A stretch of 64,000 nt of DNA from an uncultured Acidimicrobiia bacterium (lineage in GTDB: Bacteria; Actinomycetota; Acidimicrobiia; Spongiisociales; UBA5794): the NCBI GenBank assembly GCA_963704825.1, contig CAVPHV010000017.1, positions 359,325 to 423,324 on the forward strand. The letters run 5' to 3'. The notes beneath the pieces are model-generated. The model worked only from the letters and a program-made list of their open reading frames with translations. It did not search any database and was not told the DNA's origin. The translations under genes and the position numbers were made by a program. Each line of letters starts with the position of its first letter. Within the stretch, counting starts at the first letter, position 1. This document shows positions 1 to 60,153 of the stretch, in pieces.

Positions 1-374
1 ATCGGCCGGGGATGCCGGTGACCGGCGGCCAACAACCCATCGCGGGCGCTCTCACCGAGCGGCCACGACGGAGGGGTCTGCAATGCGGACTCGTCGAGGC
101 CGACTTCGTTCAGCATCGAGCGGACGATGGCGACGTGGATGGGAAAGCCGCCGTGGCTCGCAGAGGCGATCGCCATCTGCTCTGGCTTCAAAGAAGCCCC
201 ACACTCTTGAGCGACGGTTGCCTGGATGGGCTTGATCGCCGACCGGTAGAAGAGTGGTTCGTCGGGGTCGCCCCACGCGGCGAGGACTCTGCCGGAGGCG
301 TCGAGGGCGATGGCCGTTCCGTCGAACGTCGACTCGATGAGGTCGGAGCGGACCGTGCGGGCAAGCGTGGTCAT
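1..374 (-). CDS. Asparaginase-II-family-like protein (PF06089-like). N-terminal about 124 aa only; the C-terminus runs off the window start. No stop in window, so it is absent from the ORF track.
   Basis: Minus-strand ATG at 374..372. Translation MTTLARTVRSDLIESTFDGTAIALDASGRVLAAWGDPDEPLFYRSAIKPIQATVAQEC... carries the G-x-P-D-x-x-(I/F)-(F/Y)-(P/R)-S-A-(I/V)-K-P-(I/L)-Q-A pattern typical of asparaginase II-type proteins. Same strand as the downstream minus-strand genes. Confidence 0.5.
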   Translation of the reverse strand, partial: MTTLARTVRSDLIESTFDGTAIALDASGRVLAAWGDPDEPLFYRSAIKPIQATVAQECGASLKPEQMAIASASHGGFPIHVAIVRSMLNEVGLDESALQTPPSWPLGESARDGLLAAGHRHPRP

Positions 375-427
375 CTGACTCGCTCGGCAAATCTCAGACC
401 AGTGCGGGCGGACCAGGTCACGGCCAC

Positions 428-889
428 TCAGTCGTGGGAGAGCAACTCGTCGACGTTGGCCAAGCCTTCTTGGTAGCGCCGGGTGATCTCTTCGAGGATG
501 ATCTCCATGGCCTCGTACACGTAGCGCCGCTGCCTCGAGATGTCCTCCTCGGTGGAGGTGAGCATCTCTTGGATCTCGTCGAGCTCGGCGTTGTCGATCG
601 TGGGGAGATGGGTGAGGAAGTCGTCGCCCAGAACCCGATCGATGGCGCGCCTGCCTTCGCCGGGGTCGGGAGGCTCGATCGGAAGGGGCTTGGCAACCTC
701 GGTGCGCAGCGGCGTTCCGATGTCACTTCCGGCCAGGATCTCGGGCAGGGCCTCGATGAGGCTCCTGGTTTCCTCGCCGGTGCGGCGGCGTTGCTCAAAC
801 GACAGCAGATCCATCCGACCGTGGAGCAAACGGCGGTAGTAGGAGAACTCGGTGTCGAGTTCGGCGCAGAGATCGCGGCGCGCCCGCAA
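428..889 (-). CDS. Conserved coiled-coil protein with two degenerate RsiG-type c-di-GMP-binding-like motifs (RsiG / 'aerial mycelium formation'-annotated family candidate).
   Basis: 153 aa. Contains DTEFSYYRRLLHGRMD and EEDISRQRRYVYEAME, which fit E/D-x3-S-x2-R-x3-(Q/H/Y)-x3-(D/E). Predicted helical, acidic. Confidence 0.5.
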   Translation of the reverse strand: MRARRDLCAELDTEFSYYRRLLHGRMDLLSFEQRRRTGEETRSLIEALPEILAGSDIGTPLRTEVAKPLPIEPPDPGEGRRAIDRVLGDDFLTHLPTIDNAELDEIQEMLTSTEEDISRQRRYVYEAMEIILEEITRRYQEGLANVDELLSHD

Positions 890-1046
890 TTCCTCGAGCG
901 ACTCCGCGGCGAGGTCCGCGGTGAACTCGGGATCCTTGACGATGTCGATGCGACGACGGGTCTGTTCCAGGGCTAATCCCTTTCTACGGGAGCTGGTGCC
1001 GGCACGCAGGGTACCAAGCCCGGAGATGATCTGGGGCCAAGTGGCG

Positions 1047-2138
1047 TCACCCGCAGTAATACCGGACCGTTGGGTACGGATTCACCGGGGCGCCACCACC
1101 GGGGTGAATCTGGAAATGGAGGTGCGGTGAGGTACCGATGGCGTTGCCGGTGTTGCCGACATATCCGATGGTTTGGCCGGTCGAGACCCGCTGTCCGGAC
1201 TTGATGCCGGGGGCGTAGCCGTCCATGTGGGCGTAGTAGAAGGAAAAGCCGTAATCGGTGTTGACCCTGGCGACGGTTCCGCCGAGGTTGTTGGTGTAGA
1301 GCCGGACCGACCCGTTGCCAACGGCGACGAGCGGCGTACCCCGGGCCGCGAACATGTCGGTGCCCTTGTGGGTGCGGCCTCCAGAGCGGGGGAATCCCCA
1401 GTCGTTGATGAATCCGACCTGTCCCTTGACCGGGCATACAAAACCCGGCGTTGCGGCGGGGGAGAGTCCACCTCCGGCTCCCTGGCGGCGGGTCAGCTCT
1501 GCCAGCTTGCGGCGCCGTTCTGCGGCCTGCCAGGCGGCGTAGGCTTCGCGTGCTTCGCGGTCTGCCGCGGCGTACGCGGTCGAGGCGGCGGCCTGCGCCG
1601 CATCGAGCCGGTCGACGACGGCTTGAGCCTCGTCGCGCAGCGTTTCCACCTCCGCCTGATTCCGGGCCAGTTGCTCGGAGAGCCTGCCCATTTCGCGGCT
1701 GACCGCATCGAGCCGGTCCAGATCGACGATGTCGTGTTCTGTCGCCCGGCTGATGAGTACTTGGCTGGTGAGCACTTCCTGGATGGACCCTGCTTCCAGG
1801 GCGACGTTCATGAGTTCGGCTCCGCCGTTCACGTAGGCGTCGATCACCAGTGAGCGAGCGCGATCCTCGAGGTCGATAGCTTCAGCCTCGTATTCCCCGA
1901 CGCGGTCGTAGAGGACGGTGATGCGCCAGTTGAGGTCTTCGAGCCTGCTGTTGATCTCTTGATACTCGAGGAGGGCGGCGTCGAGTTCCTCGTTGATGGC
2001 AACCAGCGTGGCCGCAGCCTCGTCTCGGGCCTGTTCGGTGCGCTCGACATCATCCCGGGTCTGCGCGCCGGCTGAGATGGGAATTGCGACCAGGACCGCA
2101 AAGACCAGGAGGATGGTGAGCGCGCGAAGACTTCGCAT
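1047..2138 (-). CDS. Secreted M23 (LytM-type) metallopeptidase with an N-terminal coiled-coil domain.
   Basis: Signal peptide MRSLRALTILLVFAVLVAIPISAGA (start chosen at the internal Met, 2138, of the 407-aa ORF). C-terminal M23 signature HxxxD...HLHF (GTDMFAARGTP...SPHLHFQIH). Long Ala/Glu/Leu-rich coiled coil in between. Confidence 0.8.
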   Translation of the reverse strand: MRSLRALTILLVFAVLVAIPISAGAQTRDDVERTEQARDEAAATLVAINEELDAALLEYQEINSRLEDLNWRITVLYDRVGEYEAEAIDLEDRARSLVIDAYVNGGAELMNVALEAGSIQEVLTSQVLISRATEHDIVDLDRLDAVSREMGRLSEQLARNQAEVETLRDEAQAVVDRLDAAQAAASTAYAAADREAREAYAAWQAAERRRKLAELTRRQGAGGGLSPAATPGFVCPVKGQVGFINDWGFPRSGGRTHKGTDMFAARGTPLVAVGNGSVRLYTNNLGGTVARVNTDYGFSFYYAHMDGYAPGIKSGQRVSTGQTIGYVGNTGNAIGTSPHLHFQIHPGGGAPVNPYPTVRYYCG

Positions 2139-2367
2139 CGGGCTCATATCGGTCGGCATGCTACCACTCACTCGGTTCTGGTTCATCGGTCCAGCCTTCA
2201 TACGCTGGGGGAACGGTGCTGCGAGCGGCCGGCAGCGGTCGGGAGGAACGTCCATCCATGGGTCATTCATCGGTGCAACATGGCGTCGGGTTCAGCAAGT
2301 CTTACAGAAATGTTTTTCGCGTTCTGGCCGGAGGAATCGTCCCACGATTGGATTCCGGGGGGCGGCC

Positions 2368-3363
2368 CTACGCAAAGACCGTGATTGCAGCCCAGAAGAG
2401 GGGAACCGCCACGATGGCTCCGTCGAACATCGTCAGGACCCCCGGGGCGCGCACGGTGTGAACGACGGGCCCGGAACGCACCATCGAGCCCAGGGTGCGG
2501 CCGGCGATGTAGCCGCCACCGACGGCAACGGCTGCGAGCATCACGGTCGCCAGGGGCAGGGTGTCGGTGGTCAGCGCCGCCACGAGGCCGGCGAGCAGGG
2601 CGCCGGCAATCGCGGCCAGGTTGGGGTCCATCATGGCGGTGTCTGGGGCAAACCGCTGGGCGGCCCAGGCGGCGAGACCGGTGATCGCGATGATCGCCAG
2701 CATCATCATGACCACCTCGCCTTCGTCGCGCAGCCGCAAGAGGATGATGCTTCCGGTGGCGAGGGCGGCGGTACTGCCGAGCACCAGGGTCACGGCGACG
2801 CTGTCGAGCGAGCGCAGCCGGTCATCGAACACCGACCAGGCCAGGATCACGCAGATCCCCACGGCGAGTCCTCCGGAAAATCCGTCATTGCCCCAGGCGT
2901 AGGCGCCGTTGCCGGCGGCGGCGGCGGCCAGAAAAGCGGGGATGGCACCAATGGCGAGGCGGCGCATGGCCAACACGTCGCGCACATCCCAAATCCACGC
3001 CAGGGCGACGACAACCACCACGAAGGTGAGGAGTTCGACCGACACAACATTGGCGACGACCACGGAGATCAGCAGGGCGAGGACGAGCAGCGCTTGCATG
3101 GTCTCCTGGGAGCTTGCGATGGCGGTGGCTCCCCCCGACACCGGCGGGATCAGAGCGATCTCGTCCTTGTCGTTGACGGTGGTGCTGTCGGTGGCTGGTT
3201 CACCGTTCACCCACACCTTGGCGACCTGCAAACCGCGCTCGAAGTTGGGTCCATACTCAGCGACGGCCGCGGAGACCACGGCGCCGACGGTCTCACCGGG
3301 AAGGTCGACAATCGACGTACCCGCAGCCTCACGTAGATTTGCAAACAGGCGGAGCTTTGCCAT
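2368..3363 (-). CDS. Fusion of an N-terminal MoaD/ThiS-like beta-grasp domain (ends in Gly-Gly) to a roughly 7-TM membrane domain with weak resemblance to the CdsA/CTP-transferase_1 family.
   Basis: N-terminus MAKLRLFANLREAAGTSIVDL...VWVNGEPA...DEIALIPPVSGG matches the MoaD pattern (LFFA.LRE..G, V.VNG, DE.A.-PPV-GG). An uninterrupted ORF continues into hydrophobic helices. ...GGGYIAGRTLG...APGVLTMFDGAIVAVPLF faintly resembles CdsA C-terminal motifs but the catalytic residues are not conserved. Confidence 0.65.
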   Translation of the reverse strand: MAKLRLFANLREAAGTSIVDLPGETVGAVVSAAVAEYGPNFERGLQVAKVWVNGEPATDSTTVNDKDEIALIPPVSGGATAIASSQETMQALLVLALLISVVVANVVSVELLTFVVVVVALAWIWDVRDVLAMRRLAIGAIPAFLAAAAAGNGAYAWGNDGFSGGLAVGICVILAWSVFDDRLRSLDSVAVTLVLGSTAALATGSIILLRLRDEGEVVMMMLAIIAITGLAAWAAQRFAPDTAMMDPNLAAIAGALLAGLVAALTTDTLPLATVMLAAVAVGGGYIAGRTLGSMVRSGPVVHTVRAPGVLTMFDGAIVAVPLFWAAITVFA

Positions 3364-3376
3364 CGCCAGGACGTTA

Positions 3377-4171
3377 CTACCGGTTCTGGCGGATATCCGC
3401 GCACCATAGTGCGCTCATGTCCGCCAAAACGGGGACGGGGTGGCTGGTCGCCACCGAACGCAGCACCGTGGCGCGGACCCTGCGCAGGATGGTCGCGCCG
3501 ATGGTGTGGTGTCGCCAGGTCAGCCCGGCCCGGCCGAGGCGGAAGGTCGCGGGATCGGTCTCTTCGAGGATGGCAACCAGGGCCGTCTCGGAAGCATGAT
3601 CGGCGGCGAGTGCGGCGGCTCCCACCATGTTGAGGATTCCGGGGCGATCTGTGGTGCGCACCACATGATCGAGGCCCCAGGCGACGAAGGGCACACCGGT
3701 GCGTTCGGAGTCGCTGATGAACCGAGCCGCAACTACCGAGTCCTGGGCGGATCCCGTCGCGACGTCGACCAGGGCGGCCACCGGTATCGCCATGGCAGTG
3801 GTCGCTTCGGCAATCCCTGCCCGCCCCGGTGGAGCGGCAAGGACGATGCGAGCGGCTGGTTCCATCGCCGCCGAGAATGCCTGCTTCGCGGTGACGGCCG
3901 CGCCGAGGTCGCCGTCGATAACGATGGTGATCGGCCACGAGGCCTCGGTGGCGGCCATCGTGGTCACCAGCTCCCCCGACAATTCGATGAGCCGAGAGGC
4001 GGGGCAGAGGAAGCTTCCCAGTACGGGGGCTGCGGTGGTGGCACGAGCGGCTCGGTAGCCGGCGACGGCGTCGCGCAACGCCGGCTGATCGGGGCCGAGC
4101 ATGCTGGCGTCGTCGATCAGCGATACCAACAGGTCTCGGCTCGCGTTTGGTAGCGGCAGACGGCTGGACAT
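3377..4171 (-). CDS. Hypothetical protein (264 aa), Ala-rich, co-operonic with the MoaD-membrane fusion gene.
   Basis: Start at internal ATG 4171 with an AGGAG-like SD 6-10 nt upstream. There is a 14-nt gap to the downstream gene. No family recognised by eye. Confidence 0.5.
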   Translation of the reverse strand: MSSRLPLPNASRDLLVSLIDDASMLGPDQPALRDAVAGYRAARATTAAPVLGSFLCPASRLIELSGELVTTMAATEASWPITIVIDGDLGAAVTAKQAFSAAMEPAARIVLAAPPGRAGIAEATTAMAIPVAALVDVATGSAQDSVVAARFISDSERTGVPFVAWGLDHVVRTTDRPGILNMVGAAALAADHASETALVAILEETDPATFRLGRAGLTWRHHTIGATILRRVRATVLRSVATSHPVPVLADMSALWCADIRQNR

Positions 4172-4460: not shown

Positions 4461-5174
4461 ATGACAACGCAGGCTCGCTCCGCCACCAATGTGACCCTGC
4501 CGTTGCATGCGCTCTTCGAGGCCATGTCCGACGGTGTCCTGATCATCGACGCCGCCGGCGTCCGCACCTACGCCAACCCGGCGCTGACCGAGCTTCTGGG
4601 CTGTGATCCGCGTGAGCCGTTGGGTTCGAGCGAGGTGCCGCCGTGGATTCCCGAGGATCAGCGCACCCGCTATCGCGACTACGTCGGTGACGGATCGCGC
4701 GCCGTGCGCAGCGCCACGATCGCCCTCGAATGGGCTGTCATCGACGCCAGCGGCGAGCGAATCCCGGTGGTGCTGCGGCTGCTCCCGGTGCGAGCTTCGA
4801 TGGGTTCGCCGGCCGCCACGCTGTGGATGGTGCAGCAAGAGGCTCCGGTAGCTCCGGCGTCGGAAGCTGTCGCCGGCCGGGTCCACCTCCTGGAGAAGGG
4901 GCTGGAGCGGATCGCTTCAGACCTTGCCAGGCTAGGGTTTGCCGGCAACGGCGCTCCTCGGCCCACTGCGGGGTTCCCCGGTGCGGAGCGCCTGTCGCCA
5001 CGCGAGTCGGAGATCGTCGGACTCCTGCTCGAGGGTCATCGAGTCGTGTCCATCTCCACCGAGCTTTGTGTCAGCGAACACACGGTGCGCAACCACCTCA
5101 AGTCTGTCTTCCGCAAGCTCGGCGTGCATTCCCAGGCCGAATTGGTGCGGCGGGCTCGCAACGGCTCCTCCTGA
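4461..5174 (+). CDS. PAS domain / LuxR-family (GerE-type HTH) transcriptional regulator.
   Basis: N-terminal PAS-like segment (LFEAMSDGVLIIDAAGVRTYANPALTELLG). C-terminal LSPRESEIVGLLLEGHRVVSISTELCVSEHTVRNHLKSVFRKLGV is a LuxR HTH. Transcribed divergently from the 4171 gene. Confidence 0.8.
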   Translation: MTTQARSATNVTLPLHALFEAMSDGVLIIDAAGVRTYANPALTELLGCDPREPLGSSEVPPWIPEDQRTRYRDYVGDGSRAVRSATIALEWAVIDASGERIPVVLRLLPVRASMGSPAATLWMVQQEAPVAPASEAVAGRVHLLEKGLERIASDLARLGFAGNGAPRPTAGFPGAERLSPRESEIVGLLLEGHRVVSISTELCVSEHTVRNHLKSVFRKLGVHSQAELVRRARNGSS

Positions 5175-9284: not shown

Positions 9285-9794
9285 TCAGGCGGACTCTTCC
9301 GCCGCGTTCTCATAGCGGTCGAGTGCCGCGACGAACATCAGGAACAGGATCAGTGAGCCGAGGGTGAGCGCAATCGCAGGCACCCGAACCTGGAAGGCGT
9401 TCAGCCCTTCAACATCGGAGGGCCGCAGCCCGCGCGGGGCGTAGACCACGAACAGGGCGCTGCCGATGACCAGCCAACCAAACGTGGCGGCGCCGGTGAC
9501 GAGGAAGGCGAGGCGGGCGCCCAGGTTGGTGTAGAGCAGTAGGTAGCCGCTGCCGATGAACGCGATGATCGAGGTCACGGTGATGAGTACCCCTCGGGTC
9601 GCAACCGAGAAGGCCGTTACCCGGCCGGTGTCGGGATCGACCTGCTTGAAGATGGCGTCGTAGATGTCCCCGAACAGGCCCCGCACCGGCGGAATGAACG
9701 AAAGGATGGCGACGATGATGGCAAAGACGCCAAGCCACTCGAGGGCAGTCAGCCCTGCTTCATCACTATGGAATCGCCGGCGCAGGTTGCTCAC
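9285..9794 (-). CDS. Small integral membrane protein (169 aa, about 4 TM), last gene of the bc-complex operon.
   Basis: Its ATG overlaps the stop of the upstream cytochrome c gene (ATGA). The N-terminal GLTALEWLG is superficially Flp/TadE-prepilin-like (G-x-T-A-x-E-[YF]), probably coincidental. Four hydrophobic helices. Confidence 0.5.
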   Translation of the reverse strand: MSNLRRRFHSDEAGLTALEWLGVFAIIVAILSFIPPVRGLFGDIYDAIFKQVDPDTGRVTAFSVATRGVLITVTSIIAFIGSGYLLLYTNLGARLAFLVTGAATFGWLVIGSALFVVYAPRGLRPSDVEGLNAFQVRVPAIALTLGSLILFLMFVAALDRYENAAEESA

Positions 9795-11464
9795 ATCGAC
9801 CTTTCATACTGGACGATGAGTCGGATGTCTTCCTCAGACAGGATCTGCCCAAATGCGGGCATCCAGCCATTGCCGATCCCGTTGACGCCGTAGTTCCTGG
9901 CCAGCTCGGAACCCTCGATGATGAACTTGACCTGGTCGTCCGCATTCGGGAACTGGCTGACGGAGGCACCACCGACAAGCGATGGCCCCCAGGCCCCGCT
10001 GCCGGCTTCCTGCTCGAAGGCAACCCCGGCGCTGTAGCCGGCGGTGTGACAGCGGGCGCAGTAGCCGTTGAACAGACCGACGGCCCGCTCGCTGTCGGCC
10101 ACGCTGAGCCCGGTGTTGGCAGCCACCTCGTCGAAGTCGACCGCCCACAGTTGCTCTGCCTCGGCGTCACGTAGGAAGTTGAGGCCCTCGACTGCAGTGT
10201 TCAGGAAGACCTCTTGGCGCTCGGTCACCACGCCAAGGGTGAGATGTGCGGTGCTGAGGTCATTCATCCAAGCGTCGAGCGAGTCGATGTCGGCAATGGC
10301 CACTCCCGCAGCGTCGGTCATCGTGAAAGCCTTGCTCGGGTCGAGCATGAGGTCGTACAGGTGTGGATACAAGCCGACGTTGGGCACGATCGTCACCTCA
10401 TACGTGATGTTCCCGTCGTCGTCCTCGACCGGGGACACCACCCGCACCACCACGGTGTCCGCGGTGATGGCGGCCAGCGAGTTCGGATCCCGCTCACCGT
10501 CCACGGACCCGGCGATGAGGCGTTCGGCTTCGTCGCTGATTCCGTCGCGGTCGGTGTCGAGCCCGGCCTGGTTGCAGGATGACCCGACCATGGCGGCGGA
10601 CTCATCGGTGCAGGTCCCGTCGCCGGCCAGGATGAAAGCGATGTTGGTCGGTGTGGCGCCTGCCTGCTCCAGTGTCTCGAACTTTGCCGGGGCGTCATTC
10701 AAGTCGGCGATGACTGCTTGTTCGGCGGCAATACGGGCGGCGACTGCCTCGGCGCCGCCGGCGATGCGGGCCAGGGCGGCGTCCACCGTCGGTTGGATCT
10801 TGGCGAGGGCATCGCCCTGGGAGATTTGGAACGACTCGATGAAGGCCATGACCTGGTCGACTTCCTGGGTGCTCATGGCGCCGCCGCCTTCGAGACCGTT
10901 GGCCGGCATCGGGGTGCCGGCGCGCCCGTAGACGACCCAGAACTCGACCTCTTCTTCGCTATAGCGGTAGAAGACATCGTTGAGCGAGGGAACGGCCCAC
11001 GAGGTCTCCAACCCGCTGCGTTCCTCCGTGTAGGCCGCGCCGCCACCGCCCCCGTCGGCGCCGTGGCAGTTGGTGCACACGAAGTTGGTGTACCACCTGT
11101 GGCCCTCTTCGATGTAGAGCTCGCTTTGGGCCTCCGCCGCCTCAGCCTGGCGGTCTGACTCGATGATGTAGTAGACCGGGATGAGGAGAGCAAGAACGCC
11201 GGCTGCAACTACGGCCGACGTCAGGATCTTGGTTAGCCGTCTGTTCTCCAGCTCATCGTCGGAGAGGTACGGCTGAAGGTTGGGCGGGGTTTCGTCGGCC
11301 TTCTTCTTGCCGACCCGCCTGCTGTTGATGATGAGGTAGCCCACCCAGATCAGGAAGGCGCCGATGACCACGATGAGCACAAACGCGCCGAGCCCGACGT
11401 TGGCAGGACCGGCCGGTGTGCTGTCGGTCTCCGCCGTCGCGAGGATGATCGATGCCGCCGTCAC
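9791..11464 (-). CDS. Membrane-anchored dihaem cytochrome c (about 557 aa) with a roughly 300-aa insert between the two haem domains.
   Basis: Two CxxCH motifs (CTNCHGADG and CARCHTAGYS). N-terminal TM VGLGAFVLIVVIGAFLIWVGYLII. The insert contains DTDRDGISDEAE (DxDxDG Ca-binding-like). Start assigned to GTG 11464, overlapping the Rieske stop (GTGA); the 620-aa ORF start at 11653 lies deep inside the Rieske gene. Confidence 0.75.
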   Translation of the reverse strand: MTAASIILATAETDSTPAGPANVGLGAFVLIVVIGAFLIWVGYLIINSRRVGKKKADETPPNLQPYLSDDELENRRLTKILTSAVVAAGVLALLIPVYYIIESDRQAEAAEAQSELYIEEGHRWYTNFVCTNCHGADGGGGGAAYTEERSGLETSWAVPSLNDVFYRYSEEEVEFWVVYGRAGTPMPANGLEGGGAMSTQEVDQVMAFIESFQISQGDALAKIQPTVDAALARIAGGAEAVAARIAAEQAVIADLNDAPAKFETLEQAGATPTNIAFILAGDGTCTDESAAMVGSSCNQAGLDTDRDGISDEAERLIAGSVDGERDPNSLAAITADTVVVRVVSPVEDDDGNITYEVTIVPNVGLYPHLYDLMLDPSKAFTMTDAAGVAIADIDSLDAWMNDLSTAHLTLGVVTERQEVFLNTAVEGLNFLRDAEAEQLWAVDFDEVAANTGLSVADSERAVGLFNGYCARCHTAGYSAGVAFEQEAGSGAWGPSLVGGASVSQFPNADDQVKFIIEGSELARNYGVNGIGNGWMPAFGQILSEEDIRLIVQYERSM

Positions 11465-12360
11465 ACGCACGATGGTCCCTGCGGATAGGCAATGGTCTTG
11501 ATGGTGGCCCGGGAGGTCTCGAGGACCTGGCCCGTCTGAACGACGAGGTCGCCGTTGTCGTTGATCTCGACGGCGAAGCGGTCCATGTTGCGCGGCGCCG
11601 GTCCATCCACGTACTCGCCGTGGAAGTTGTACTTGGAGCCGTGACAGGGGCATTCAAAACCCTGCGACGACAGACACTCGGGGACCCGGCAGCCGAGGTG
11701 GACACAGCGCTGCCAGAGTGCCATCAGGCCCGGCTCGCTGCCGTCGGTGGCGACCACGGGAAGACCAGCGAATGAGCTGGCATCCTGGACATTGGAGTCG
11801 AACGGAACGATCCACGATTGGGCCGCGGCCACGAAGACCGGCTGGACGGAGCCGTCGGCTTGGATCATCTGGAGCTGCAGCTCGGTGAAGTTGCCTGCGT
11901 TGATTGGTGAGCCAAAGCCACCCTTCAGCTTCGGCCACAGGAAGGCCAGGAAGCTCAGCGATAGTCCTCCGAGGAAGGCACCGACGAACAGACCGAACAA
12001 TGCTCGGTTCAGGAACTTGCGGCGGGTGACGCCGTACTCGGCGGACGTGATCGGGATCCTCTCCAGTGCCGGATCTGGCGGCGGGGCCGCCGGCCCAGTA
12101 GCCGTCTCAGACTCGGCCGTTGTGGCGGTGTCGTCTTCAGCGGTTGCCGTCAACGTGGCAACCGCGGTTCCGCCTCCGTCGGCAGCAGACGCCTGTCGTC
12201 GGCGGTCGGAGCGAACCGCACGCTTGTCGAGCTTGCCGGTTGCGGCCGAGGTGATGGGTTCGGCGGACGGGCCGCGGCGCCATGCCACAGTGAACACCGC
12301 GAGGGCCGCCAGCCCTGCGGCGGCGACAATGCCAATGACGAAGATGGTGGTTGCGCTCAT
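11461..12360 (-). CDS. Rieske [2Fe-2S] iron-sulfur subunit of a cytochrome bc-type complex (Tat signal).
   Basis: CVHLGCRV...CPCHGSKY Rieske boxes. Twin-arginine RRKFLNRALFGLFVG. Start taken at the internal ATG 12360 (MSATTIFVIG...), which overlaps the upstream stop (ATGA). Confidence 0.85.
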   Translation of the reverse strand: MSATTIFVIGIVAAAGLAALAVFTVAWRRGPSAEPITSAATGKLDKRAVRSDRRRQASAADGGGTAVATLTATAEDDTATTAESETATGPAAPPPDPALERIPITSAEYGVTRRKFLNRALFGLFVGAFLGGLSLSFLAFLWPKLKGGFGSPINAGNFTELQLQMIQADGSVQPVFVAAAQSWIVPFDSNVQDASSFAGLPVVATDGSEPGLMALWQRCVHLGCRVPECLSSQGFECPCHGSKYNFHGEYVDGPAPRNMDRFAVEINDNGDLVVQTGQVLETSRATIKTIAYPQGPSCV

Positions 12361-13586: not shown

Positions 13587-14369
13587 TTAGAGCGGACCCG
13601 AGATGCCGCCGTCTTTGCGCACTCGCCAGAAGTGCACGGCCATGAACACCACGATCACGAACGGGAAGAACAAGACGTGGAGGACGTACCACCGCAGCAG
13701 CGTGTCCGGCGTGATCTGGACGCCGCCGATCAACGCAAAGGACACTTGATCTCCCAACACCGGCGCATAGGCCCCCATGTTGGTGCCGACGGTCACCGCC
13801 CATACAGCCAATTGGTCCCACGGCAGCAGGTAGCCGGTGAACGAGAGGAGCAGGGTGAGGAGAAGGAGGATGATGCCGACCACCCAGTTGAATTCGCGGG
13901 GCGGCTTGTAGGCGCCGTGGTAGAAGACCCGAGCCATGTGGAGGAACACGGTCAGCACCATCAGGTGGGCACCCCATCGGTGCATGTTGCGTACCAACTG
14001 ACCAAAGGCCACGTCGGTCGAAAGCGCCTGGATGTCCTGGAAGGCGGCCGGTGACGTCGGCCGGTAGTAGAACATCAGGAAGATGCCGGTGATCGTGAGC
14101 AGGATGAACAGGAAGAACGAGAGTCCGCCGAGACAGAGGGTGTAGGAGAGCCGGACGCCGTGGCGCTTCACCTTCACCGGGTGGAGGTGGTAGAGCACGT
14201 TGTTCATGATCACATAGGAGCGGTTGCGGGGGCTGTCCGAGTAGCCAGCGCGCAGCGGTGAGCCGGGGCGGAAGATGCTCGACCACACCTGGCTGGATTG
14301 GATGCTCTCACCGACTTGGACCAGGCGCTCTTTCAGCCCGACCTTGCCGTCTCCGTTCCCGTTCGCCAC
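13587..14369 (-). CDS. Cytochrome b6-type (short, 260 aa) cytochrome b N-terminal domain protein.
   Basis: Four TM helices with bis-haem His pairs (MHRWGAHLMVLTVFLHM and RWYVLHVLFFPFVIVVFMAVHFWRVRKDGGISGP), typical of PetB/QcrB (Bacillus-type). Confidence 0.85.
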   Translation of the reverse strand: MANGNGDGKVGLKERLVQVGESIQSSQVWSSIFRPGSPLRAGYSDSPRNRSYVIMNNVLYHLHPVKVKRHGVRLSYTLCLGGLSFFLFILLTITGIFLMFYYRPTSPAAFQDIQALSTDVAFGQLVRNMHRWGAHLMVLTVFLHMARVFYHGAYKPPREFNWVVGIILLLLTLLLSFTGYLLPWDQLAVWAVTVGTNMGAYAPVLGDQVSFALIGGVQITPDTLLRWYVLHVLFFPFVIVVFMAVHFWRVRKDGGISGPL

Positions 14370-15630: not shown

Positions 15631-17607
15631 ATGGAGGACGCGCGAGCGGTGGCCGCAGAGACGAAGACCGACGCTTCCGAGCCCGTACAGTCTGTGGCGG
15701 TATCTGGGTACTCCGGAGCAGCCCGCGCCCACATCTTTGTAGCGCTCGGCTCGCTCTTTGCCGGCGTCATGCTTGCCCTGGTTGCCGTGACGCAACTGGT
15801 CCTTCCCGATGTGTTCTCCGGCGTCGGCATGCTGAGCTACGGCAGGGTGCTTCCCGCTGCGACCAACGTTCTCGTCTACGGCTGGCTGACGGTTGGATTG
15901 ATCGGCGCCGCCTACTACATCGTTTCCGAGGTCGCCGGAGTCAAACTCCAGTTCGAGCCGCTCGCCCGAGTGGGCGCTCTGTTGCTCGCCATCGGTGTCA
16001 TCGCCGGCGCCGGCGGGATCGCACTCGGTTGGAGTGAGGGACGCACCTACGTCGAGATGCCGCTGTGGGCGGACTTCTTCGTTCTCCTCGGCTTGCTGAT
16101 CGCGGTGCGGGTCATCACCGCAACCATCTCCGATCGCACCAACCGCGAGATGGGTCCGGCCCTGTGGTTCCTCGGCGCCGCACCACTGTGGCTGTTGTTT
16201 GCCTTCGTGGTCGGCAACATCCCCGGCCTGGTCGGGATGAACAGCGTCATCCAGACCGCCTTCTACCGCGGCGCCCTTGCCGGGCTCTGGTTGTCGGTAG
16301 CCGGCTTCGGGATCGTGTACTACCTCATACCGAAGGTGACCGGCCGCGGACCGGCCAAGCCGACCAAGCTCGCGGTCATGGGTTTCTGGTCGCTCGGGTT
16401 CGTCTGGGCGTTTGCCGGAGCCGCCAACCTCACGTACACCCCGGCCCCCGGCTGGCTGCAGACCATCGGTGTCGTGTTCTCGATCGCGCTCTTCCTTCCG
16501 CTCGCCATGCTGTTCACAGATCTGGTTGGTCTGATGCGTGGCCGCTGGGGTCGGGCACGCGACCGGATGACGATGCGCTTCATCGGGGCGGGAGCAATCC
16601 TGTTGCTGGTGACGGCGGTCATCAACCTGCTCCAGGCGCTGCGGGCATCGAACGCCGTTGTCGGCTACACCATCTGGGGTGCCGCCTTCGAGTACGCCAC
16701 GTTCTACGGGGCATTCACGCTGTGGCTGGCCGCCTTCATCTACGCCGCGGCCGGTGATCTGCTCGGAGGTGTCTTCAAGCCTTCGGTGGCGAGAGGGCAC
16801 TACCGCCTCACGACGTTCTCGATCACCGTCATCCTGGCGACGACGCTGATCGGAGGCCTGCAAACCGGGTTCTTGTGGATCGCCGACGCCAACAGTCCCG
16901 AAAGTACCGTGGCTTACGGGCCAGGGTGGAAGGCCGTCGTTGAATCGCTTCAGCCGCACTACTGGATCTTGTTCCTGGCGATGGTTCTGTTTGTCTTCGC
17001 TCAGGTCCGCTTTGTCGCCGGCGGGGTCGCCGCGGCCATCAACGCGAGACCGGCGGAGCCGGAGACGGCCGACCACGACGACCTCGAAGGACCCGACCTC
17101 GCGGATGCCGGCTGGATGGCGACCAACGGAGTGTCCGCCCGCCACCTGTGGCTCGGGTCGACTGGTCTCCTTGTGCTGGCGGCCCTGCTGGTGGTGCTGC
17201 TGCCCTCGCTCGAGGCTTCTCACGTGGACGGGACCATCCTCTCGGACCGCTCCCGCAACTACCGCTCCGATGACTTCTTGGAGCGCGGCCGCGGGTTGTA
17301 CCTGGCCGAGGGGTGCTGGTACTGCCACACCCAGGACGTCCGGCCCATCGTCACGGACGTGGAATTGGGTGCGGTCAGCCAGCCCGGCGATTACGCAAAT
17401 GAGGTTCCGGCCTTGCTCGGCACGGCTCGGGTGGGACCCGACCTGATGCACGCCGCGACCCGGGAGGAAGCCGGTTCGAGCGCGTTCCTTTTTGATCACT
17501 TGACCGACCCGCGGGTCGACCGCCCCTGGTCGATCATGCCGAGTTATGACTACCTGTCGGAGAACGACCGGTTGGCCCTCGCCGCCTACATCACGAGTCT
17601 GGACTGA
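15631..17607 (+). CDS. cbb3-type oxidase subunit I (CcoN)-like 12-TM domain lacking all canonical haem/CuB histidine ligands, fused to a CcoO/FixO-like monohaem cytochrome c domain.
   Basis: Block-wise similarity to CcoN as I remember it: [34 protein letters not shown] vs [53 protein letters not shown] vs [33 protein letters not shown] vs GPHHLHYT. The C-terminus [22 protein letters not shown]...VGPDL...IMPSYDYL matches the CcoO haem-c site. Confidence 0.75.
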   Translation: [658 protein letters not shown]

Positions 17608-24659: not shown

Positions 24660-25091
24660 GTGACGCTTGCTGCCTACCTACCAATCGCGCTCATGTTCCT
24701 GCTGGGAACAGGATTCGCCGCGGTCATGATGTGGTTCTCCTGGCTGATTGCGCCGAACAACCCGACTCCGGAGAAGCTGGCCCCGTACGAGTGTGGGATC
24801 GTGCCGCTCCAAGAGCCGGCAGAACGCTTCCCGGTCAAGTTCTATCTGGTTGCGATGTTGTTTGTGATCTTCGACGTCGAGATCATCTTCCTCTTTGCCT
24901 GGGCGGTCAGATTCGACCAGTTCGGGTGGCCCGGCGTCCTCGCCGTCGGCATCTTCATCGCCCTCCTGGCCGAGACCCTGGTCTATGCCTGGAAGCGTGG
25001 CGCGCTCGACTGGAACGTGGCGCGCCGCGAACGCTACCGCCGCGAAGTTGTTCGGGGTGACACGAAGTCCGTGGTGGAGGACGCCGCCTGA
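24660..25091 (+). CDS. nuoA: NADH-quinone oxidoreductase subunit A (with a roughly 25-aa C-terminal extension), GTG start.
   Basis: [10 protein letters not shown]...[22 protein letters not shown] signature. First gene of the 14-gene operon. Confidence 0.9.
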
Positions 25092-25561
25092 TGGCAGGAG
25101 CATCACAGCCGTCCGGGTTCCTTCTCGGCACTCTGGAGAAGGGCGTGAATTGGGCTCGTACCCGGTCGATGTGGGGCGCCACGTTTGGTCTGGCGTGCTG
25201 CGCCATCGAGATGATGGGGACCGGCGCGTCGCACAACGACCTCGGGCGTTTTGGCATGGAGGTGTGGCGCGCCTCGCCGCGTCAGGCAGATCTCATGGTG
25301 GTGGCAGGACGCGTCTCCCAGAAGATGGCGCCGGTGTTGCGCCAGGTGTACGACCAGATGGCGGAGCCGAAGTGGGTCATCTCGATGGGGGCGTGTGCCT
25401 CGACCGGCGGGATGTTCAACAACTATGCAATCGTCCAAGGGGTCGACGAGGTCGTTCCCGTCGACATCTATGTGCCCGGGTGCCCGCCGGGACCGCAGTC
25501 GCTGATGCACGGCATCTTGACGCTGCACGAAAAAATCATGGCCGGCGAGATCGTTCGGTGA
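25091..25561 (+). CDS. nuoB: NADH-quinone oxidoreductase subunit B.
   Basis: [22 protein letters not shown] and VPGCPP are N2-cluster Cys motifs. Its ATG overlaps the nuoA TGA. Confidence 0.9.
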
Positions 25562-25571
25562 GTGGATTGCG

Positions 25572-26108
25572 ATGACTGACGACACCACCACGGAGCCGGC
25601 AGAGACCGCCGAAGACGCCGACGCCGTAGCTGAGGCCCTGATCGAGGACGCCGCGTTGAGCGCGCTCGACGCAGCCGAACTCGAGGTCGCCGCCGACGGG
25701 AAAACCGTCACCGCCCGGATCGACCGCGAAGGCTACGTGGCGTTGATGACCGCGGCCCGTGACGTGGGGTTCGACACCTTTGTAGATCTCTGTGCCGTCG
25801 ATTACTTCCGGCGCCAACCCCGGTTCGAGGTCGTCGTGATCGTGTTTGCGCTCGAGCAACGCCGCCGGTTGCTCGTGAAGGTCGGGGTTCCGGGCGGCGA
25901 GCCGAGCCTCGATTCACTGACGTCCCTGTGGCCGGGCGCCAACTTCTACGAGCGCGAGGCGTACGACCTCTTCGGCATCCACTTCTCCGGCCACCCAGAT
26001 CTGACCAGGATCCTGCTGCCCGACGATTGGGAGGGCCATCCGCTGCGCAAGGACTACGCGGTTGGATCGGTGCCCGTGCAGTTCAAGGGAGCGCACCAGA
26101 CGCCATGA
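25572..26108 (+). CDS. nuoC: NADH-quinone oxidoreductase subunit C (30-kDa subunit).
   Basis: ERE(A/V)YD(L/M)FGI motif ([20 protein letters not shown]). Confidence 0.85.
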
Positions 26109-27538
26109 GTGACACTCCGAACATCGTTACCGGCGACTTCGAAGCGCCCACCATCGAACCGCCGCCCGAGTCCGGGGCCGCGCCGGGTACGGCGGGCAAG
26201 CAGCGGCGTGAGATCCACGACGTCTGGATTGCAGGCACCGAAGAGCCCCGGGTGGCCCAATCGACCGACGAGGGCGCGCAGGAATTGCTGCCGGCCGGCC
26301 AGGAGCCAGCTGCTGCGGTCCAGCGCGGGACCGTGGTCGATGACGACTATCTCTTTGGGTACGACTCGGACCAGGAAGAGCGCCAGATCATCAACATGGG
26401 CCCACAGCACCCGTCGACCCACGGGGTCCTTCGGCTGCAAATGGAGCTCGAGGGTGAGACTATCTGCCGGGTCAAGCCGATCATCGGCTACCTCCACACC
26501 GGGATGGAGAAGACGGCTGAGACCCTCACCTGGCTCCAAGGTCCGACCAACGTGACCCGGATGGACTACCTGTCGCCGTTCTTCAACGAGTTGGCATTCT
26601 CCATGGCGGCCGAGGACCTGCTCGGCGTCGATATCCCGGCTCGGGGTCAGGCAATCCGGATCCTGATGACCGAGCTGAACCGGATTTCGAGCCACCTGAT
26701 CTGGCTGTCGACCCAGGGCATGGACATCGGGGCCCTTTCGCTCATGCTGTATGGCTGGCGGGAGCGTGAGTTGCTGCTTGCCTTCTTCGAGAAGACAACC
26801 GGACTGCGGATGAACCACAACTACATCCGACCCGGCGGCGTCGCCGCCGACCTGCCCGACGGCTGGGAGGACGACGTCGAAGAGATCCTCGCGGTCATCC
26901 CGAAGGCCATGGAGGAGTACGACGAACTGATCGCCGCGAACCCGATCTTCCTGGACCGTACCCAGGGCATCGGTGTGCTCACCATGGAGGAATGCAAGGC
27001 GTACGGCGTCACCGGGCCGATTGCTCGGGCGTCGGGGATCGCAGTCGATCTGCGCAAGATCTTCCCTTACAGCGGCATCGAGCAGTACGAGTTCGATGTA
27101 CCGGTCGGCAAGACCGGTGACACCTACGACCGCTATCTCGTCCGGATGGAGGAAATGCGTCAGTCGTTGCGCATCGTGCGTCAGGTACTCGAGACGATGC
27201 CGGCTGGTGACTACCGCACCGAGGACCGCAAGGTCACTCCGCCGCCCCGCAAGCGGATCGATGAGTCGATGGAAGCGCTCATCCACCACTTCAAGATCTT
27301 CACCTCAGGGTTCAAGGTGCCGGCCGGCGACGTCTACCGCGCCGTCGAGTCGCCGCGTGGCGAGCTCGGCATGTACATCGTCTCGACCGGGGGTACCCGG
27401 CCGTGGCGGGTCCACGCCCGGGCGCCTTCCTTCAACCATGTCCAAGCGCTGCCGGCGATGATGACCGATTCGCTGGTGGCCGACATCATCGCCACGCTTG
27501 CCAGCGTCGACCCGGTGTTGGGGGACGTCGACCGATGA
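26105..27538 (+). CDS. nuoD: NADH-quinone oxidoreductase subunit D (49-kDa), with a roughly 70-aa N-terminal extension.
   Basis: [16 protein letters not shown] and the C-terminal ...[20 protein letters not shown] overlap with nuoC. Confidence 0.9.
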
Positions 27539-28164
27539 CACATCCCACCGCGCCGTGGAGCGGACCGAACCAGGAACGGGCCAAGCGTCTGCTCGAGCTG
27601 TATCCCGACTCGCGCTCGGCCGTGATGCCGTTGCTGTACGTGGGCTCGCTCGAACACGGCTCCGTCACCGACGCTGTGATGCGTGAAGTCGCAGAGATGA
27701 CCGGCCTGACCGCGGCACAGGTGCAATCGGTGGCGAGCTTCTACACGATGTATAGGCGCAACGGCGTCGGCCGCTATCTCATCTCGGTGTGCAGTTCGAT
27801 CTCGTGCTTCCTGCTCGGCGCCGACGACGTGCTGGCTGCGGTCGAGGCAGAGAGCGCCGTCCCCGATGGCGAGACCGGCGAGGACGGCATGTTCTCGGTC
27901 GAGCATGTCGAATGCATCGGTGCCTGCGGTGGGGCCCCGGCGGTTCAGGTCAACTACGAATTGATCGAAGGCGTTACCCCGGAGAAGGGTGCGGAGTTGT
28001 GCCGCTGGCTGCGCGACAGCAAGCCTGGCGTGGTCGGTGGCGACGAACTGCAGCAGCTCTTCGGCGGCCGCCGATCCTTCGAGTGGGGACCTATCGAGCC
28101 AGAAGGAGCGGTGCTCGCCGCGCCGGCGTTCGACCCATACGGCACGGCGGAGGAGGCGCGATGA
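27535..28164 (+). CDS. nuoE: NADH-quinone oxidoreductase subunit E (24-kDa, [2Fe-2S]).
   Basis: CSSISCFLLGADDV...VECIGACGGAPAVQVN has the four Cys of the thioredoxin-like [2Fe-2S] site. ATGA overlap with nuoD. Confidence 0.9.
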   Translation: MTHPTAPWSGPNQERAKRLLELYPDSRSAVMPLLYVGSLEHGSVTDAVMREVAEMTGLTAAQVQSVASFYTMYRRNGVGRYLISVCSSISCFLLGADDVLAAVEAESAVPDGETGEDGMFSVEHVECIGACGGAPAVQVNYELIEGVTPEKGAELCRWLRDSKPGVVGGDELQQLFGGRRSFEWGPIEPEGAVLAAPAFDPYGTAEEAR

Positions 28165-29474
28165 CCACCCGCATCCTCACCACCCGAATGGACGAGTACC
28201 CCACAGACTCGAACACCCTCGGGCGCTATCGCGGGACCGGCGGCTACGTGGCGCTCGAGAAGGCTCTGGGCACGATGACGCCCGACGAGGTCAAGGAGAC
28301 GGTCAAGGCGTCCAATATCCGCGGTCGCGGCGGCGCCAACTTCCCGACCGGGATCAAGTGGGGCTTTCTCCCGCCGACCAAGCCCCGCTATCTGGTGATC
28401 AACGGCGACGAGTCCGAGCCGGGTACCTTCAAGGACCGCCAGTTGCTCGAACGTGACCCGCACCAATTGGTCGAGGGCATCATCCTCTCCGCTTTTGCCC
28501 TCGAGGTCCACCACGCCTTCATCTACATCCGTGGTGAGTACCCGAAGCCCGCCCGCCGGGTGCAGCGGGCCATCGACGAGGCCTACGAAGCCGGCTTCCT
28601 CGGCACCAACATTCTCGGCAGCGGGTTTGATCTGGAGATCACGGTTCACCTCGGCGCCGGCGCGTACATCTGCGGAGAGGAGACGGCACTGCTCAATTCG
28701 CTCGAAGGCCGCCGTGGCGAACCTCGCATCAAGCCACCCTTCCCTGCCGTTGAGGGCCTCTACGCCCGTCCGACCATCGTCAACAACGTCGAAACACTGT
28801 CCGACATCCCCTGGATCGTGGCCAACGGTGGCCCGGCCTACGCCGCCATCGGGCCGGCTACCTCGGCAGGGACGCGGATGTTCTCAATGTCGGGACACAT
28901 CAACAAGCCGGGCAACTACGAGCTGGTGATGGGGATGACGTGGCAAGACCTCATCTTCGATATCTGCGGTGGCATCCGCGATGGCAACGAGCTGAAGTGC
29001 TGGATTCCGGGCGGGGCTTCGGCTCCCTGGTTTGTTCCCGACCTGCACCTCGACACGCCGCTGACCATCGACGACGTGGGCAAGAACGGTTCCATGCTTG
29101 GATCGGGCGCCGTCATTGTCATGGACGAAACCACCAACGTCGTGGCTGCGGCGCACCGGATCGTGCGCTTCTTCGCCCACGAGTCGTGTGGCCAGTGCAC
29201 CCCGTGCCGCGAAGGCACCACTTGGATGGAGCAGATCCTGTGGCGAATTCTCAACGGCCACGGCCGCCCGGCGGACCTCGACCTCCTCCTCGACGTTTCC
29301 GACAACATCAGCCCGGGATTGCGGTGGCCGCCGGCGCAGACGACGATCTGCCCTCTTGGTCCATCCGCGGTGTCGCCCATTCGGTCGATCATGACCTACT
29401 TCCGCGATGAGGTGGAGTCGATGGCGGCCGCGAGCGCCGAGCTCGCCGACGAGGAAGGGGTGCCGGTTGGCTGA
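28161..29474 (+). CDS. nuoF: NADH-quinone oxidoreductase subunit F (51-kDa; FMN, NADH and N3 [4Fe-4S]).
   Basis: GRGGANFPTG (FMN), ICGEETALLNSLEG and ESCGQCTPCREGT (N3 cluster). ATGA overlap with nuoE. Confidence 0.9.
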   Translation: MTTRILTTRMDEYPTDSNTLGRYRGTGGYVALEKALGTMTPDEVKETVKASNIRGRGGANFPTGIKWGFLPPTKPRYLVINGDESEPGTFKDRQLLERDPHQLVEGIILSAFALEVHHAFIYIRGEYPKPARRVQRAIDEAYEAGFLGTNILGSGFDLEITVHLGAGAYICGEETALLNSLEGRRGEPRIKPPFPAVEGLYARPTIVNNVETLSDIPWIVANGGPAYAAIGPATSAGTRMFSMSGHINKPGNYELVMGMTWQDLIFDICGGIRDGNELKCWIPGGASAPWFVPDLHLDTPLTIDDVGKNGSMLGSGAVIVMDETTNVVAAAHRIVRFFAHESCGQCTPCREGTTWMEQILWRILNGHGRPADLDLLLDVSDNISPGLRWPPAQTTICPLGPSAVSPIRSIMTYFRDEVESMAAASAELADEEGVPVG

Positions 29475-32975: not shown

Positions 32976-32985
32976 GGGGATAGCG

Positions 32986-34699: not shown

Positions 34700-34701
34700 C
34701 C

Positions 34702-51445: not shown

Positions 51446-51489
51446 GGACTGCCACTATCCCACGACGGGTTCGAGCTGCGCCGCCAGGT

Positions 51490-60074: not shown

Positions 60075-60101
60075 GGGCTCCCTACGTTGCTGCGCGAGCG
60101 A

Positions 60102-60151: not shown

Positions 60152-60153
60152 GC

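Follow-up and report, generated by a model that had tools for sequence, protein, structure and literature searches.

A MoaD/ThiS-type beta-grasp domain with an internal Gly-Gly, fused to a CdsA-fold membrane domain in Acidimicrobiia, as a candidate carrier precursor

Introduction

In the chemistry of ThiS/MoaD, Urm1 and ubiquitin, a free Gly-Gly carboxylate is adenylated by an E1-like enzyme and then thiocarboxylated or conjugated, and the prokaryotic ThiS/MoaD carriers are the ancestors of ubiquitin. A gene of an uncultured Acidimicrobiia bacterium raises the question of what such a domain does when its Gly-Gly (GG) lies inside a membrane protein. The gene is located in a 64,000-nucleotide (nt) stretch of contig CAVPHV010000017.1 (positions 359,325 to 423,324, forward strand), which we call the window, and its product continues in frame from a MoaD/ThiS-type domain into a multi-pass membrane domain. 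An initial annotation had offered three readings: proteolytic processing after the GG, a non-catalytic regulatory or targeting module, or a membrane tether for a sulfur carrier. Here we describe the fusion, trace its relatives and weigh these readings, of which we favour a precursor that would be cut after the GG.

The fusion protein and its MoaD/ThiS domain

The gene is a single uninterrupted open reading frame (ORF) of 331 codons without an internal stop, in which the following parts can be told apart; a slash marks the bond that would be cut.

2368..3363, minus strand: fusion gene, MoaD/ThiS beta-grasp domain, linker and CdsA-fold membrane domain; 331 amino acids (aa) plus stop
3130..3363, minus strand: MoaD/ThiS beta-grasp domain, residues 1-78, matched by PF02597
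3130..3135, minus strand: codons GGG GGA of Gly77-Gly78, within a run of six G (G6), read from the sequence; internal diglycine and putative cleavage site GG/A
3112..3129, minus strand: linker, residues 79-84 (ATAIAS), from alignments and low model confidence
2371..3111, minus strand: membrane domain, residues 85-331; remote CdsA (CTP_transf_1) homologue with a remodelled active-site region and nine predicted transmembrane (TM) helices, N-terminus inside

The Pfam ThiS model PF02597 (76 positions, cut-off 22.5 bits) aligned with residues 5-78 from its position 2 to 76 and scored 46.8 bits (E 4.4e-12), so the N-terminus is a beta-grasp domain. The best-scoring NCBIfam model was TIGR01682 moaD, with 50.1 bits under its equivalog cut-off of 66.15; moaD_arch (43.0 against 49.5) and SAMP1 (39.1 against 60) also matched below their cut-offs. 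The AlphaFold2 model of the fusion protein, with a predicted local distance difference test (pLDDT) of 85 and a predicted template modelling score (pTM) of 0.74, gave this domain a mixed beta/alpha structure. Foldseek matched it to CysO (3dwg_C), SAMP1 (3po0), MoaD (1fm0_D) and Urm1 chains with TMt values of 0.64-0.75 (0.67-0.75 for the first three), CysO and SAMP1 being the closest solved folds. The N-terminal domain belongs to the ThiS/MoaD family by Pfam, with a beta-grasp fold and a Gly-Gly at the domain end.

The initial annotation had described a MoaD-type beta-grasp domain, an internal GG and an in-frame membrane domain, and all of this description holds. The motifs that it quoted (LFANLREAAG, VWVNGE and DEIALIPPVSGG) are all present in the translation, the last being the domain end, past whose GG the frame runs for 253 further residues. 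The domain had been given as residues 1-76; its actual length is 78, with the GG at residues 77-78 (nt 3130-3135).

Spread of the fused family

A protein search returned 414 relatives, the best 120 of which are full-length proteins of about 330 aa with 44-91% identity. These relatives come from NCBI, ENA, JGI and Logan assemblies and are annotated at most as 'MoaD/ThiS family protein' (Acidimicrobiia). A profile built from the membrane domain only, run against 1.84 billion representative proteins, returned just 111 clusters (50% identity). In most of these the protein has about 330 aa and enters the membrane domain at residue 80-105; short fragments make up many of the others. A scan of one genome per species located the fused gene in about 26 species-level metagenome-assembled genomes (MAGs), nearly all labelled Acidimicrobiia; the few with other labels are probably mis-binned. 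A hidden frameshift or stop, the objection that the initial annotation had raised against its own claim, was looked for and not found, the same in-frame architecture being present in at least 120 homologues and about 26 species-level genomes. The fusion is genuine and ancient, and its membrane-domain family is new, unannotated and confined to Acidimicrobiia.

As to orthologous fusions versus split genes, a comparison that had been proposed for this locus, fusions are the rule, with one split locus (L086) and two loci with the membrane domain only (L085 and L087). An apparent stand-alone membrane domain, P0145, is a fusion truncated at the edge of its contig, with VALIPPVSGGAM as first bases. 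In L086 (protein P0166) the MoaD frame ends in ...PPVSGGDR with two stops, followed by a GTG-started membrane-domain gene in the +1 frame and then by genes for an M23 peptidase and RsiG. L085 (P0142) and L087 (P0158) genuinely lack a MoaD. At about 1400-1480 of L087 an in-frame ...QPPLAGGPS stands just ahead of the GTG start and looks like a decayed MoaD tail. By eye, the membrane-domain gene of L085 (1-393) overlaps a hot-dog/MaoC-like-looking ORF by 4 nt.

Conservation of the internal Gly-Gly

In the alignment of close homologues, P73-P74-V75-S76-G77-G78 is unchanged in 30 of 30. The sequence PPV[S/A]GG is likewise present in all 43 divergent full-length representatives, which are 29-48% identical to the window protein; these were retrieved by the membrane-domain-only profile without reference to the MoaD motif and thus give an unbiased test of the GG. 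The residue following the GG among them is Ala, Ser, Thr, Glu or Gln, and the linker varies in sequence and in length, from about 7 to 30 aa. In the AlphaFold2 model the pLDDT falls below 50 at residues 75-78 and 83-85, and the linker is predicted to be flexible.

The G6 homopolymer lies exactly at the domain junction, in the Ser-Gly-Gly codons TCG GGG GGA (window 3130-3138, minus strand). Runs of this type are indel-prone and may explain the occasional split or mis-called gene in assemblies. Two other ways of making separate products were considered and rejected. Programmed frameshifting or slippage at the G6 run would have to give a free GG end, and neither shifted frame, read by hand, yields a product ending at GG. 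An internal start at Met89 behind an AGGAG, both seen by eye, involves a Met that is unconserved in the family and hence is no family feature.

Free orthologues at the RsiG-linked locus

For the search of related carriers, we ran tblastn across 88 fetched loci; in about 50, the MoaD frame was translated as far as the stop codon. Four groups could be distinguished. In the fused Acidimicrobiia loci (group a) the order is MoaD-TM, M23 peptidase, RsiG, asparaginase II, FemAB-like acetyltransferase, GT4 (MshA-like) glycosyltransferase and YbjN. Acidimicrobiales MAGs (group b) have the same block minus the membrane domain: a MoaD of 75-78 aa ends exactly at PPVSGG-stop, with RsiG directly downstream. 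In another Actinomycetota lineage (group c), a free MoaD ending at GG, or at GG plus 2-8 residues, is followed by genes for a diacylglycerol-kinase-like protein, CysH, ATP sulfurylase, M23, RsiG and asparaginase II. In other phyla (group d), MoaD is paired with or fused to MoaE in the canonical manner. At L048, one of the free orthologues, a MoaE gene lies at a distance of 2.4 kb.

The N-terminal domains of group a share a mean identity of 57% among themselves, 49% to groups b and c, and 38% to group d. In a neighbour-joining (NJ) tree of the 78-aa domain, groups a, b and c form one clade separate from d; fused and free forms have branches of similar length, and the tree does not resolve the former as a monophyletic group. 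The fused MoaD domain is an orthologue of the stand-alone 75-78-aa MoaDs at the RsiG-linked locus of the sister Acidimicrobiales. The columns conserved in MoaE-linked MoaDs (F7, R11, E12, G15, N53, D67, E68, A70, L71 and PPVSGG) are at least as well conserved among the fused proteins, a comparison whose motif columns are biased because the loci were picked by two MoaD motifs.

Six free orthologues (L038, L041, L043, L044, L047 and L051) carry tails of 2-8 residues after the GG (e.g., GGAFGTAASS, GGSPMRNSRR, GGRG), while their close relatives stop at GG. Extensions past the GG therefore occur inside this orthologous group, and the tails hint at a GG-exposing protease at work in those Actinomycetota.

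In loci L037-L052 (e.g., L037 10001-11160), a lipid-kinase-type gene occupies the slot held by the CdsA-like domain in Acidimicrobiia; the protein names in these loci were assigned by reading N-terminal sequences. The roughly 12 diacylglycerol-kinase-like loci count as one event, given their close relationship (78-84% identity with the gene of L037).

The membrane domain and its relation to CdsA

The initial annotation had seen a faint CdsA-like remnant in the C-terminal half and proposed a check against PF01148. The window protein gave no match to this Pfam model (CTP_transf_1) at E<=1, and none of 15 membrane domains of the family matched Pfam even at E<=10. Searches of the membrane domain against NCBIfam, PADLOC and PDB sequences, direct and by profile, also returned nothing. 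The relationship was borne out at the profile and fold level only. An exhaustive HMM search with the membrane-domain profile reached a bona fide actinobacterial CdsA (P0235, E 8.5e-5), whose identity was confirmed by 6,594 PF01148 homologues and a match to TmCdsA. In hhalign, the membrane domain aligned to P0235 alone with 93% probability and to a 12-sequence actinobacterial CdsA profile with 95.3% (E 2.2e-8) over 227 columns spanning the whole domain. The top Foldseek matches in the PDB were the TmCdsA chains 4q2e_A and 4q2g_B (E 2-3e-3, probability 1.00, TMt 0.60-0.62, 253-278 columns). By profile alignment and structural model, the membrane domain is a remote homologue of CdsA and is predicted to share its fold.

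Eight helices were assigned by DSSP to the membrane domain in the AlphaFold2 model. Hydropathy and CdsA homology divide the 40-residue helix at 140-179 in two, giving nine predicted TM helices instead of the about seven first proposed. A positive-inside count of Lys and Arg (6.3 in the predicted inside loops versus 2.3 outside) fits nine TM helices with the N-terminus inside, and the predicted outside loops are a few residues each. TmCdsA itself is a nine-helix protein whose N-terminus is cytoplasmic and whose funnel-shaped cavity opens to the cytoplasm, and mutagenesis found D144, K167, D219, E222, K226, D246 and D249 essential (PMC4083444). Three conserved elements of the family are as follows.

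2986..2997, minus strand: W123-x-W125-D126 motif in TM2; W123 and D126 invariant in 51/51 sequences
2620..2628, minus strand: D246-P247-N248, aligned to the CdsA S-P-x-K loop; D246 kept in 49/51 sequences
2419..2502, minus strand: family signature G288-R-x-x-G-S-x-x-R296 ... P307-G308-x5-D314-G315, counterpart of the CdsA signature

According to hhalign, the CdsA S-P-x-K loop reads D246-P-N-L in the window protein, the position of TmCdsA K167 is L/T/S/V in the family (column counts) and that of D144 is variable (G/V/A/T). The CdsA counterpart of the C-terminal signature is GDxxES..KR....KD......PGHGGxxDRxD, and the position of its metal-binding Asp219 is non-acidic in the family. In this region hhalign pairs S293 with D219, R296 with E222 and D314-G315 with D249-G250, with the KRxxxxKD loop deleted; motif spacing (G-x4-S-x2-[K/R] ... 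P-G-x5-D) pairs R289 with D219, G292 with E222, R296 with K226 and D314 with D246. Under both alignments D144, K167, D219 and E222 are replaced, that is, at least four of the seven essential residues of TmCdsA, and what remains of the C-terminal CdsA motif is one Lys/Arg (R296) and one Asp (D314). Therefore, the two-metal Mg/K centre could not form as in TmCdsA. Since the Mg/K-binding and accessory residues are largely replaced, the domain is no canonical CDP-diacylglycerol synthase and is unlikely to be a cytidylyltransferase; neither Pfam nor its catalytic residues place it in CTP_transf_1. By column counts, the family keeps W123, D126, G161, R184, D246, G288, R289, G292, R296, G308 and D314. 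The three Asp and three Arg conserved among them (D126, D246, D314, R184, R289 and R296) form a cluster, which the predicted topology places in cytoplasmic loops or near cytoplasmic helix ends, on the same side as the MoaD domain.

Gene neighbourhood

The genes on both sides of the fusion are as follows.

1047..2270, minus strand: M23 peptidase with a signal/anchor segment and coiled coil; PF01551 at residues 300-398, E 4e-22
428..889, minus strand: RsiG-family anti-sigma factor gene, conserved anchor of the syntenic block (tblastn synteny)
3377..4171, minus strand: upstream 264-aa ORF (298 aa from an alternative GTG start at 4273), no family match
4461..5174, plus strand: divergent PAS-LuxR (GerE) regulator, by Pfam

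Within window 1-2270 (minus strand), the genes for M23 peptidase, RsiG and asparaginase II form a syntenic block that recurs in MAGs of Acidimicrobiia and of other Actinomycetota. A long coiled coil is present in the M23 protein, whose HxxxD and HxH motifs, read from the sequence, are intact. The M23 gene follows the fused one in about 26 of the 32 fused loci compared, the exceptions being L001 and three loci that end too soon, and it is also present in the split and both membrane-domain-only loci. RsiG homologues are annotated as PF22802 in L001-L004, L086 and L087.

The upstream ORF of 264 aa, which ends 13 bp ahead of the ATG of the fusion, had been taken for an operon partner; this is unsupported, for it is a neighbour only and the conserved neighbours lie downstream (M23, then RsiG). 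The 264-aa protein gave no match in Pfam, NCBIfam or PADLOC and has only 14 detectable homologues in the protein search. Its longer relatives of about 315 aa (e.g., L002 6014-6967 and L003 4746-5687), a family without a Pfam model, adjoin genes for HPPD-like (4-hydroxyphenylpyruvate-dioxygenase-like), cupin and fumarylacetoacetase (FahA) proteins in either orientation, and the family may be an uncharacterised component of the homogentisate pathway. In the window copy, some 45 internal residues and the pathway neighbours have been lost. Its AlphaFold2 model (pLDDT 66) had no significant PDB match, only weak alpha/beta-barrel-like ones (E>=0.026). With 14 homologues, a family seated in homogentisate-pathway clusters and variable orientation, we rejected this gene as a conserved partner of the fusion. 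On an ENA contig of 102,928 bp from a close relative (P0374), a gene of the 264-aa type and a MoaD-TM gene were called as one 582-aa protein because the frame changes towards the end of the former; because of this merged call, the 264-aa-type protein P0366 falls in the same 90% cluster as the fusion.

The divergent PAS-LuxR gene that had been noted is indeed there, but it is not conserved beside the fusion: L003 has a PAS/GerE regulator a few kb upstream and L004 a GerE-type one directly upstream, and neither is found in L001 or L002. An anti-phage defence system was considered and rejected, since PADLOC gave no match at E<=0.01 for the fusion, the 264-aa protein, M23 or RsiG.

Elsewhere in the window, two apparently separate nuo-like NADH:quinone oxidoreductase clusters were seen by eye from N-terminal sequences (24660-39653 and 57364-64000, plus strand). 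A 658-aa protein (15631-17607, plus strand) combines haem-copper oxidase subunit I (COX1) with a C-terminal FixO/cytochrome c domain, and genes for cytochrome b and multi-haem cytochrome c lie near it (9791-11653, 13587-14369). About 50 kb from the fusion, 50270-54033 encodes an LPG_synthase_TM protein, an acyltransferase and an Rce1-like (CAAX/CPBP) intramembrane protease, for which no link to the fusion was found.

A processed carrier precursor and the alternatives

The fused proteins are as strict as their free orthologues in GG, PPVSGG tail and MoaD surface motifs, and the linker is variable and flexible; this pattern is therefore best explained by a carrier that would be released. Of the three readings in the initial annotation, processing after the GG is favoured by the GG in 43/43 representatives, the variable linker and the free orthologues ending at GG. 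Specifically, we propose that the fusion is a GG-internal precursor like mycobacterial MoaX, in which cleavage would free the carrier from its partner or anchor, a non-canonical CdsA-fold domain, and we regard this proposal as about evenly poised between right and wrong. The beta-grasp domain would lie in the cytoplasm, joined by a short flexible linker to TM1 of the nine-helix CdsA-fold domain, whose polar cavity would also face the cytoplasm. The chain would be cut after Gly78 (GG/A, GG/S or GG/T) by a protease encoded elsewhere, the candidates being a JAMM/MPN+ type or the actinobacterial activity that cuts MoaX at GG/S. From the Asp/Arg cluster we infer that the membrane domain may bind a ligand or partner. 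It might act as membrane anchor and release platform of the carrier, or as the partner that receives the activated carrier, parallel to MoaE in MoaD-MoaE fusions.

Precedents for such cleavage exist. MoaX of Mycobacterium tuberculosis, a MoaD-MoaE fusion, is cut between Gly82 and Ser83 by an unidentified protease and is inactive when uncut (PMC4326299), and DRJAMM is reported to cleave the Deinococcus radiodurans MoaD-MoaE fusion (PMC8832034). The neighbouring M23 peptidase was considered as the GG protease and judged unlikely, since M23 carries a signal/anchor (secreted) and the GG bond would be cytoplasmic.

Several points weigh against the processed-precursor proposal. The GG could be retained as a hinge instead of a cleavage site. 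The membrane domain is apparently able, if rarely, to exist without a beta-grasp domain in cis, and a 2-nt deletion in the G run would account for the split in L086, which would then be of recent origin or a mistake in the one contig concerned. Which residues of the C-terminal motif correspond to those of CdsA is provisional, as hhalign and motif spacing disagree. A nearby JAMM/MPN+ or E1-like gene, which the initial annotation had suggested looking for, did not turn up: no E1/ThiF, JAMM or MoaE was present among the 24 window ORFs scanned, and no E1, JAMM or MoaE within 7-8 kb of the fusion gene in the annotated flanks of four relatives. A tblastn search with MoaE found no match in fused loci either.

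As the main rival, the protein may stay uncleaved, with the beta-grasp domain as a permanent cytoplasmic module (regulatory, plug or docking) and the GG as a flexible hinge, analogous to the N-terminal domain of EccD; we consider this possible, although on the doubtful side. Such a module might recruit an E1-like or MoaE-like partner, or gate the CdsA-fold cavity. Actinobacterial EccD offers the precedent of a YukD-like domain on a polytopic membrane protein (PMC1779556), and Foldseek also lists the EccD chains 6umm_B and 6sgx_C, though with a TM-score <0.2. Permanent attachment is further consistent with the prevalence of full-length fusions among the 111 clusters, where many shorter members are fragments, with the truncation of the seemingly stand-alone P0145, and with the lack of a protease or E1 gene in the scanned window ORFs and the flanks of four homologues. 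A mere hinge accords poorly with a GG kept in 43/43 while the linker right behind it varies, and with the retention of the whole MoaD conservation profile, including the PPVSGG tail, which in free carriers enters the E1 and MoaE active sites. To our knowledge, EccD-type and other non-conjugated beta-grasp domains keep no diglycine. In addition, the orthologue in the sister lineage is a free carrier ending at GG, and both tested GG-internal MoaD fusions, MoaX and the Deinococcus MoaD-MoaE, are cleaved, the latter reportedly.

It is unlikely, in our view, that the CdsA-fold domain is an active enzyme that uses the released carrier, thiolating a lipid or nucleotide-lipid via the thiocarboxylate or joining the GG carboxylate to a lipid head group. 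ThiS/MoaD domains are usually fused to the enzyme that uses them, such as MoaE, ThiG, sulfite reductase or aldehyde oxidoreductase (PMC1779556), and the CdsA family carries out nucleotidyl transfer onto lipids at the membrane-cytoplasm interface (PMC4083444). D126, R184, D246, R289, R296 and D314 are kept and placed near a cytoplasm-facing site by the predicted topology, and a free orthologue precedes a diacylglycerol-kinase-like gene in about 12 loci, a weak signal as these are one evolutionary event. Such an enzyme is opposed by the loss of the CdsA two-metal centre as in TmCdsA (D219 to Arg/Ser, E222 to Gly/Arg, D144 and K167 unconserved), by the missing E1 gene in the scanned window ORFs and flanks of homologues, and by the weakness of the gene-neighbourhood signal. 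We also know of no thiolated lipid or lipidated ubiquitin-like protein in bacteria.

A bolder form of this idea, which we regard as a long shot, is that a re-tooled CdsA-fold enzyme receives the released, activated beta-grasp domain at the membrane-cytoplasm interface, to pass sulfur to a lipid or nucleotide-lipid or to couple Gly to a phospholipid as a bacterial counterpart of Atg8-PE; in a related variant the Asp cluster would cut GG/A in cis. Polytopic aspartyl peptidases cut after Gly, which provides an analogy for the latter variant.

Very improbable is a role in envelope remodelling, in which the membrane domain would work with the adjacent secreted coiled-coil M23 peptidase as FtsX does with EnvC, and MoaD would be a cytoplasmic input module. 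The M23 gene does follow the fusion in about 26 of 32 fused loci, and accompanies the split and both membrane-domain-only loci, and its product has the signal/anchor, the long coiled coil and the intact HxxxD and HxH motifs. Lineages without the membrane domain also have the M23-RsiG pair, so the adjacency can be inherited synteny, and the outside loops of a few residues offer nothing to hold a coiled coil.

Finally, an artefact, i.e., a frameshift or assembly error joining moaD to a separate membrane-protein gene, can practically be discarded, for although the GG codons sit inside a G6 homopolymer, L086 is split at the G run and the P0374 contig even joins the upstream gene to the fusion, the in-frame architecture recurs in more than 120 clusters from NCBI, ENA, JGI and Logan at 44-91% identity and in about 26 species-level genomes.

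Comparison with known systems

A 2006 survey of prokaryotic ubiquitin-like proteins lists fusions of MoaD-MoaE, ThiS-ThiG, ThiS-sulfite reductase, MoaD-aldehyde oxidoreductase and YukD-12TM types; a MoaD-CdsA-like fusion is not among them (PMC1779556). In full-text literature searches, no paper turned up that connects MoaD with a CdsA-like or membrane domain, with membrane-anchored sulfur carriers or with Acidimicrobiia. By its architecture the fusion is a putative GG-internal sulfur-carrier precursor, with a partner domain from a new, unannotated family. Known carrier fusions join a soluble sulfur-using enzyme; here a MoaD with, as judged from its sequence, every active hallmark is tied to a membrane protein of a lipid-nucleotide-enzyme family, in a class-level lineage. 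If the membrane domain is the functional partner of the carrier, this would be a bacterial link of sulfur-carrier/ubiquitin-like chemistry to membrane lipids, unseen so far.

The membrane domain shares with CdsA (PF01148; TmCdsA, 4Q2E/4Q2G) the fold with collinear helices over the whole domain, the predicted N-in topology with a cytoplasm-facing site, and one Lys/Arg-Asp pair and the Pro-Gly ... Asp-Gly part of the signature, which are still recognisable. It differs in having no Pfam match, in the replacement of D144/K167/D219/E222, in the shortened KRxxxxKD loop, in being fused to a beta-grasp domain, and in its confinement to Acidimicrobiia, with only 111 clusters. An unannotated remote CdsA family with a remodelled active site makes a clear case in which to ask how a nucleotidyltransferase fold comes to be repurposed.

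EccD of type VII (ESX) secretion is also actinobacterial, with an N-terminal cytoplasmic beta-grasp followed by a multi-pass membrane domain (PMC1779556). In contrast to the fusion described here, its beta-grasp is of the YukD type, without diglycine and unprocessed, its membrane domain is unrelated (12 helices predicted in the 2006 survey, PMC1779556; Foldseek TM-score <0.2), and its gene context is ESX instead of M23, RsiG and asparaginase II.

The carriers trimmed by JAMM/MPN+ proteases (QbsE/QbsD, CysO-Mec+ and archaeal SAMPs) have the same ThiS/MoaD fold and a GG exposed only after proteolysis, which is predicted here. Their extensions are a few residues, whereas the extension here is a 250-aa membrane protein, and their JAMM and E1 genes usually lie in the same operon (PMC1779556), while none was found here in the scanned ORFs and flanks.

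The closest parallels are MoaX and the Deinococcus MoaD-MoaE, which likewise have an N-terminal MoaD, an internal GG and a small residue next to it (GG/S in MoaX; GG/A, GG/S or GG/T here); MoaX also shares the actinobacterial setting. Their C-terminal partner is a soluble MoaE, in place of which the present family has a nine-helix CdsA-fold membrane domain, located in the RsiG/M23 block with no adjacent MoaE and no moa operon, and cleavage here is predicted only. If the fusion is processed, a membrane-tethered precursor would join the short list of GG-internal carriers and would point to a GG-specific protease of Actinomycetota, which even for MoaX of M. tuberculosis still awaits a name.

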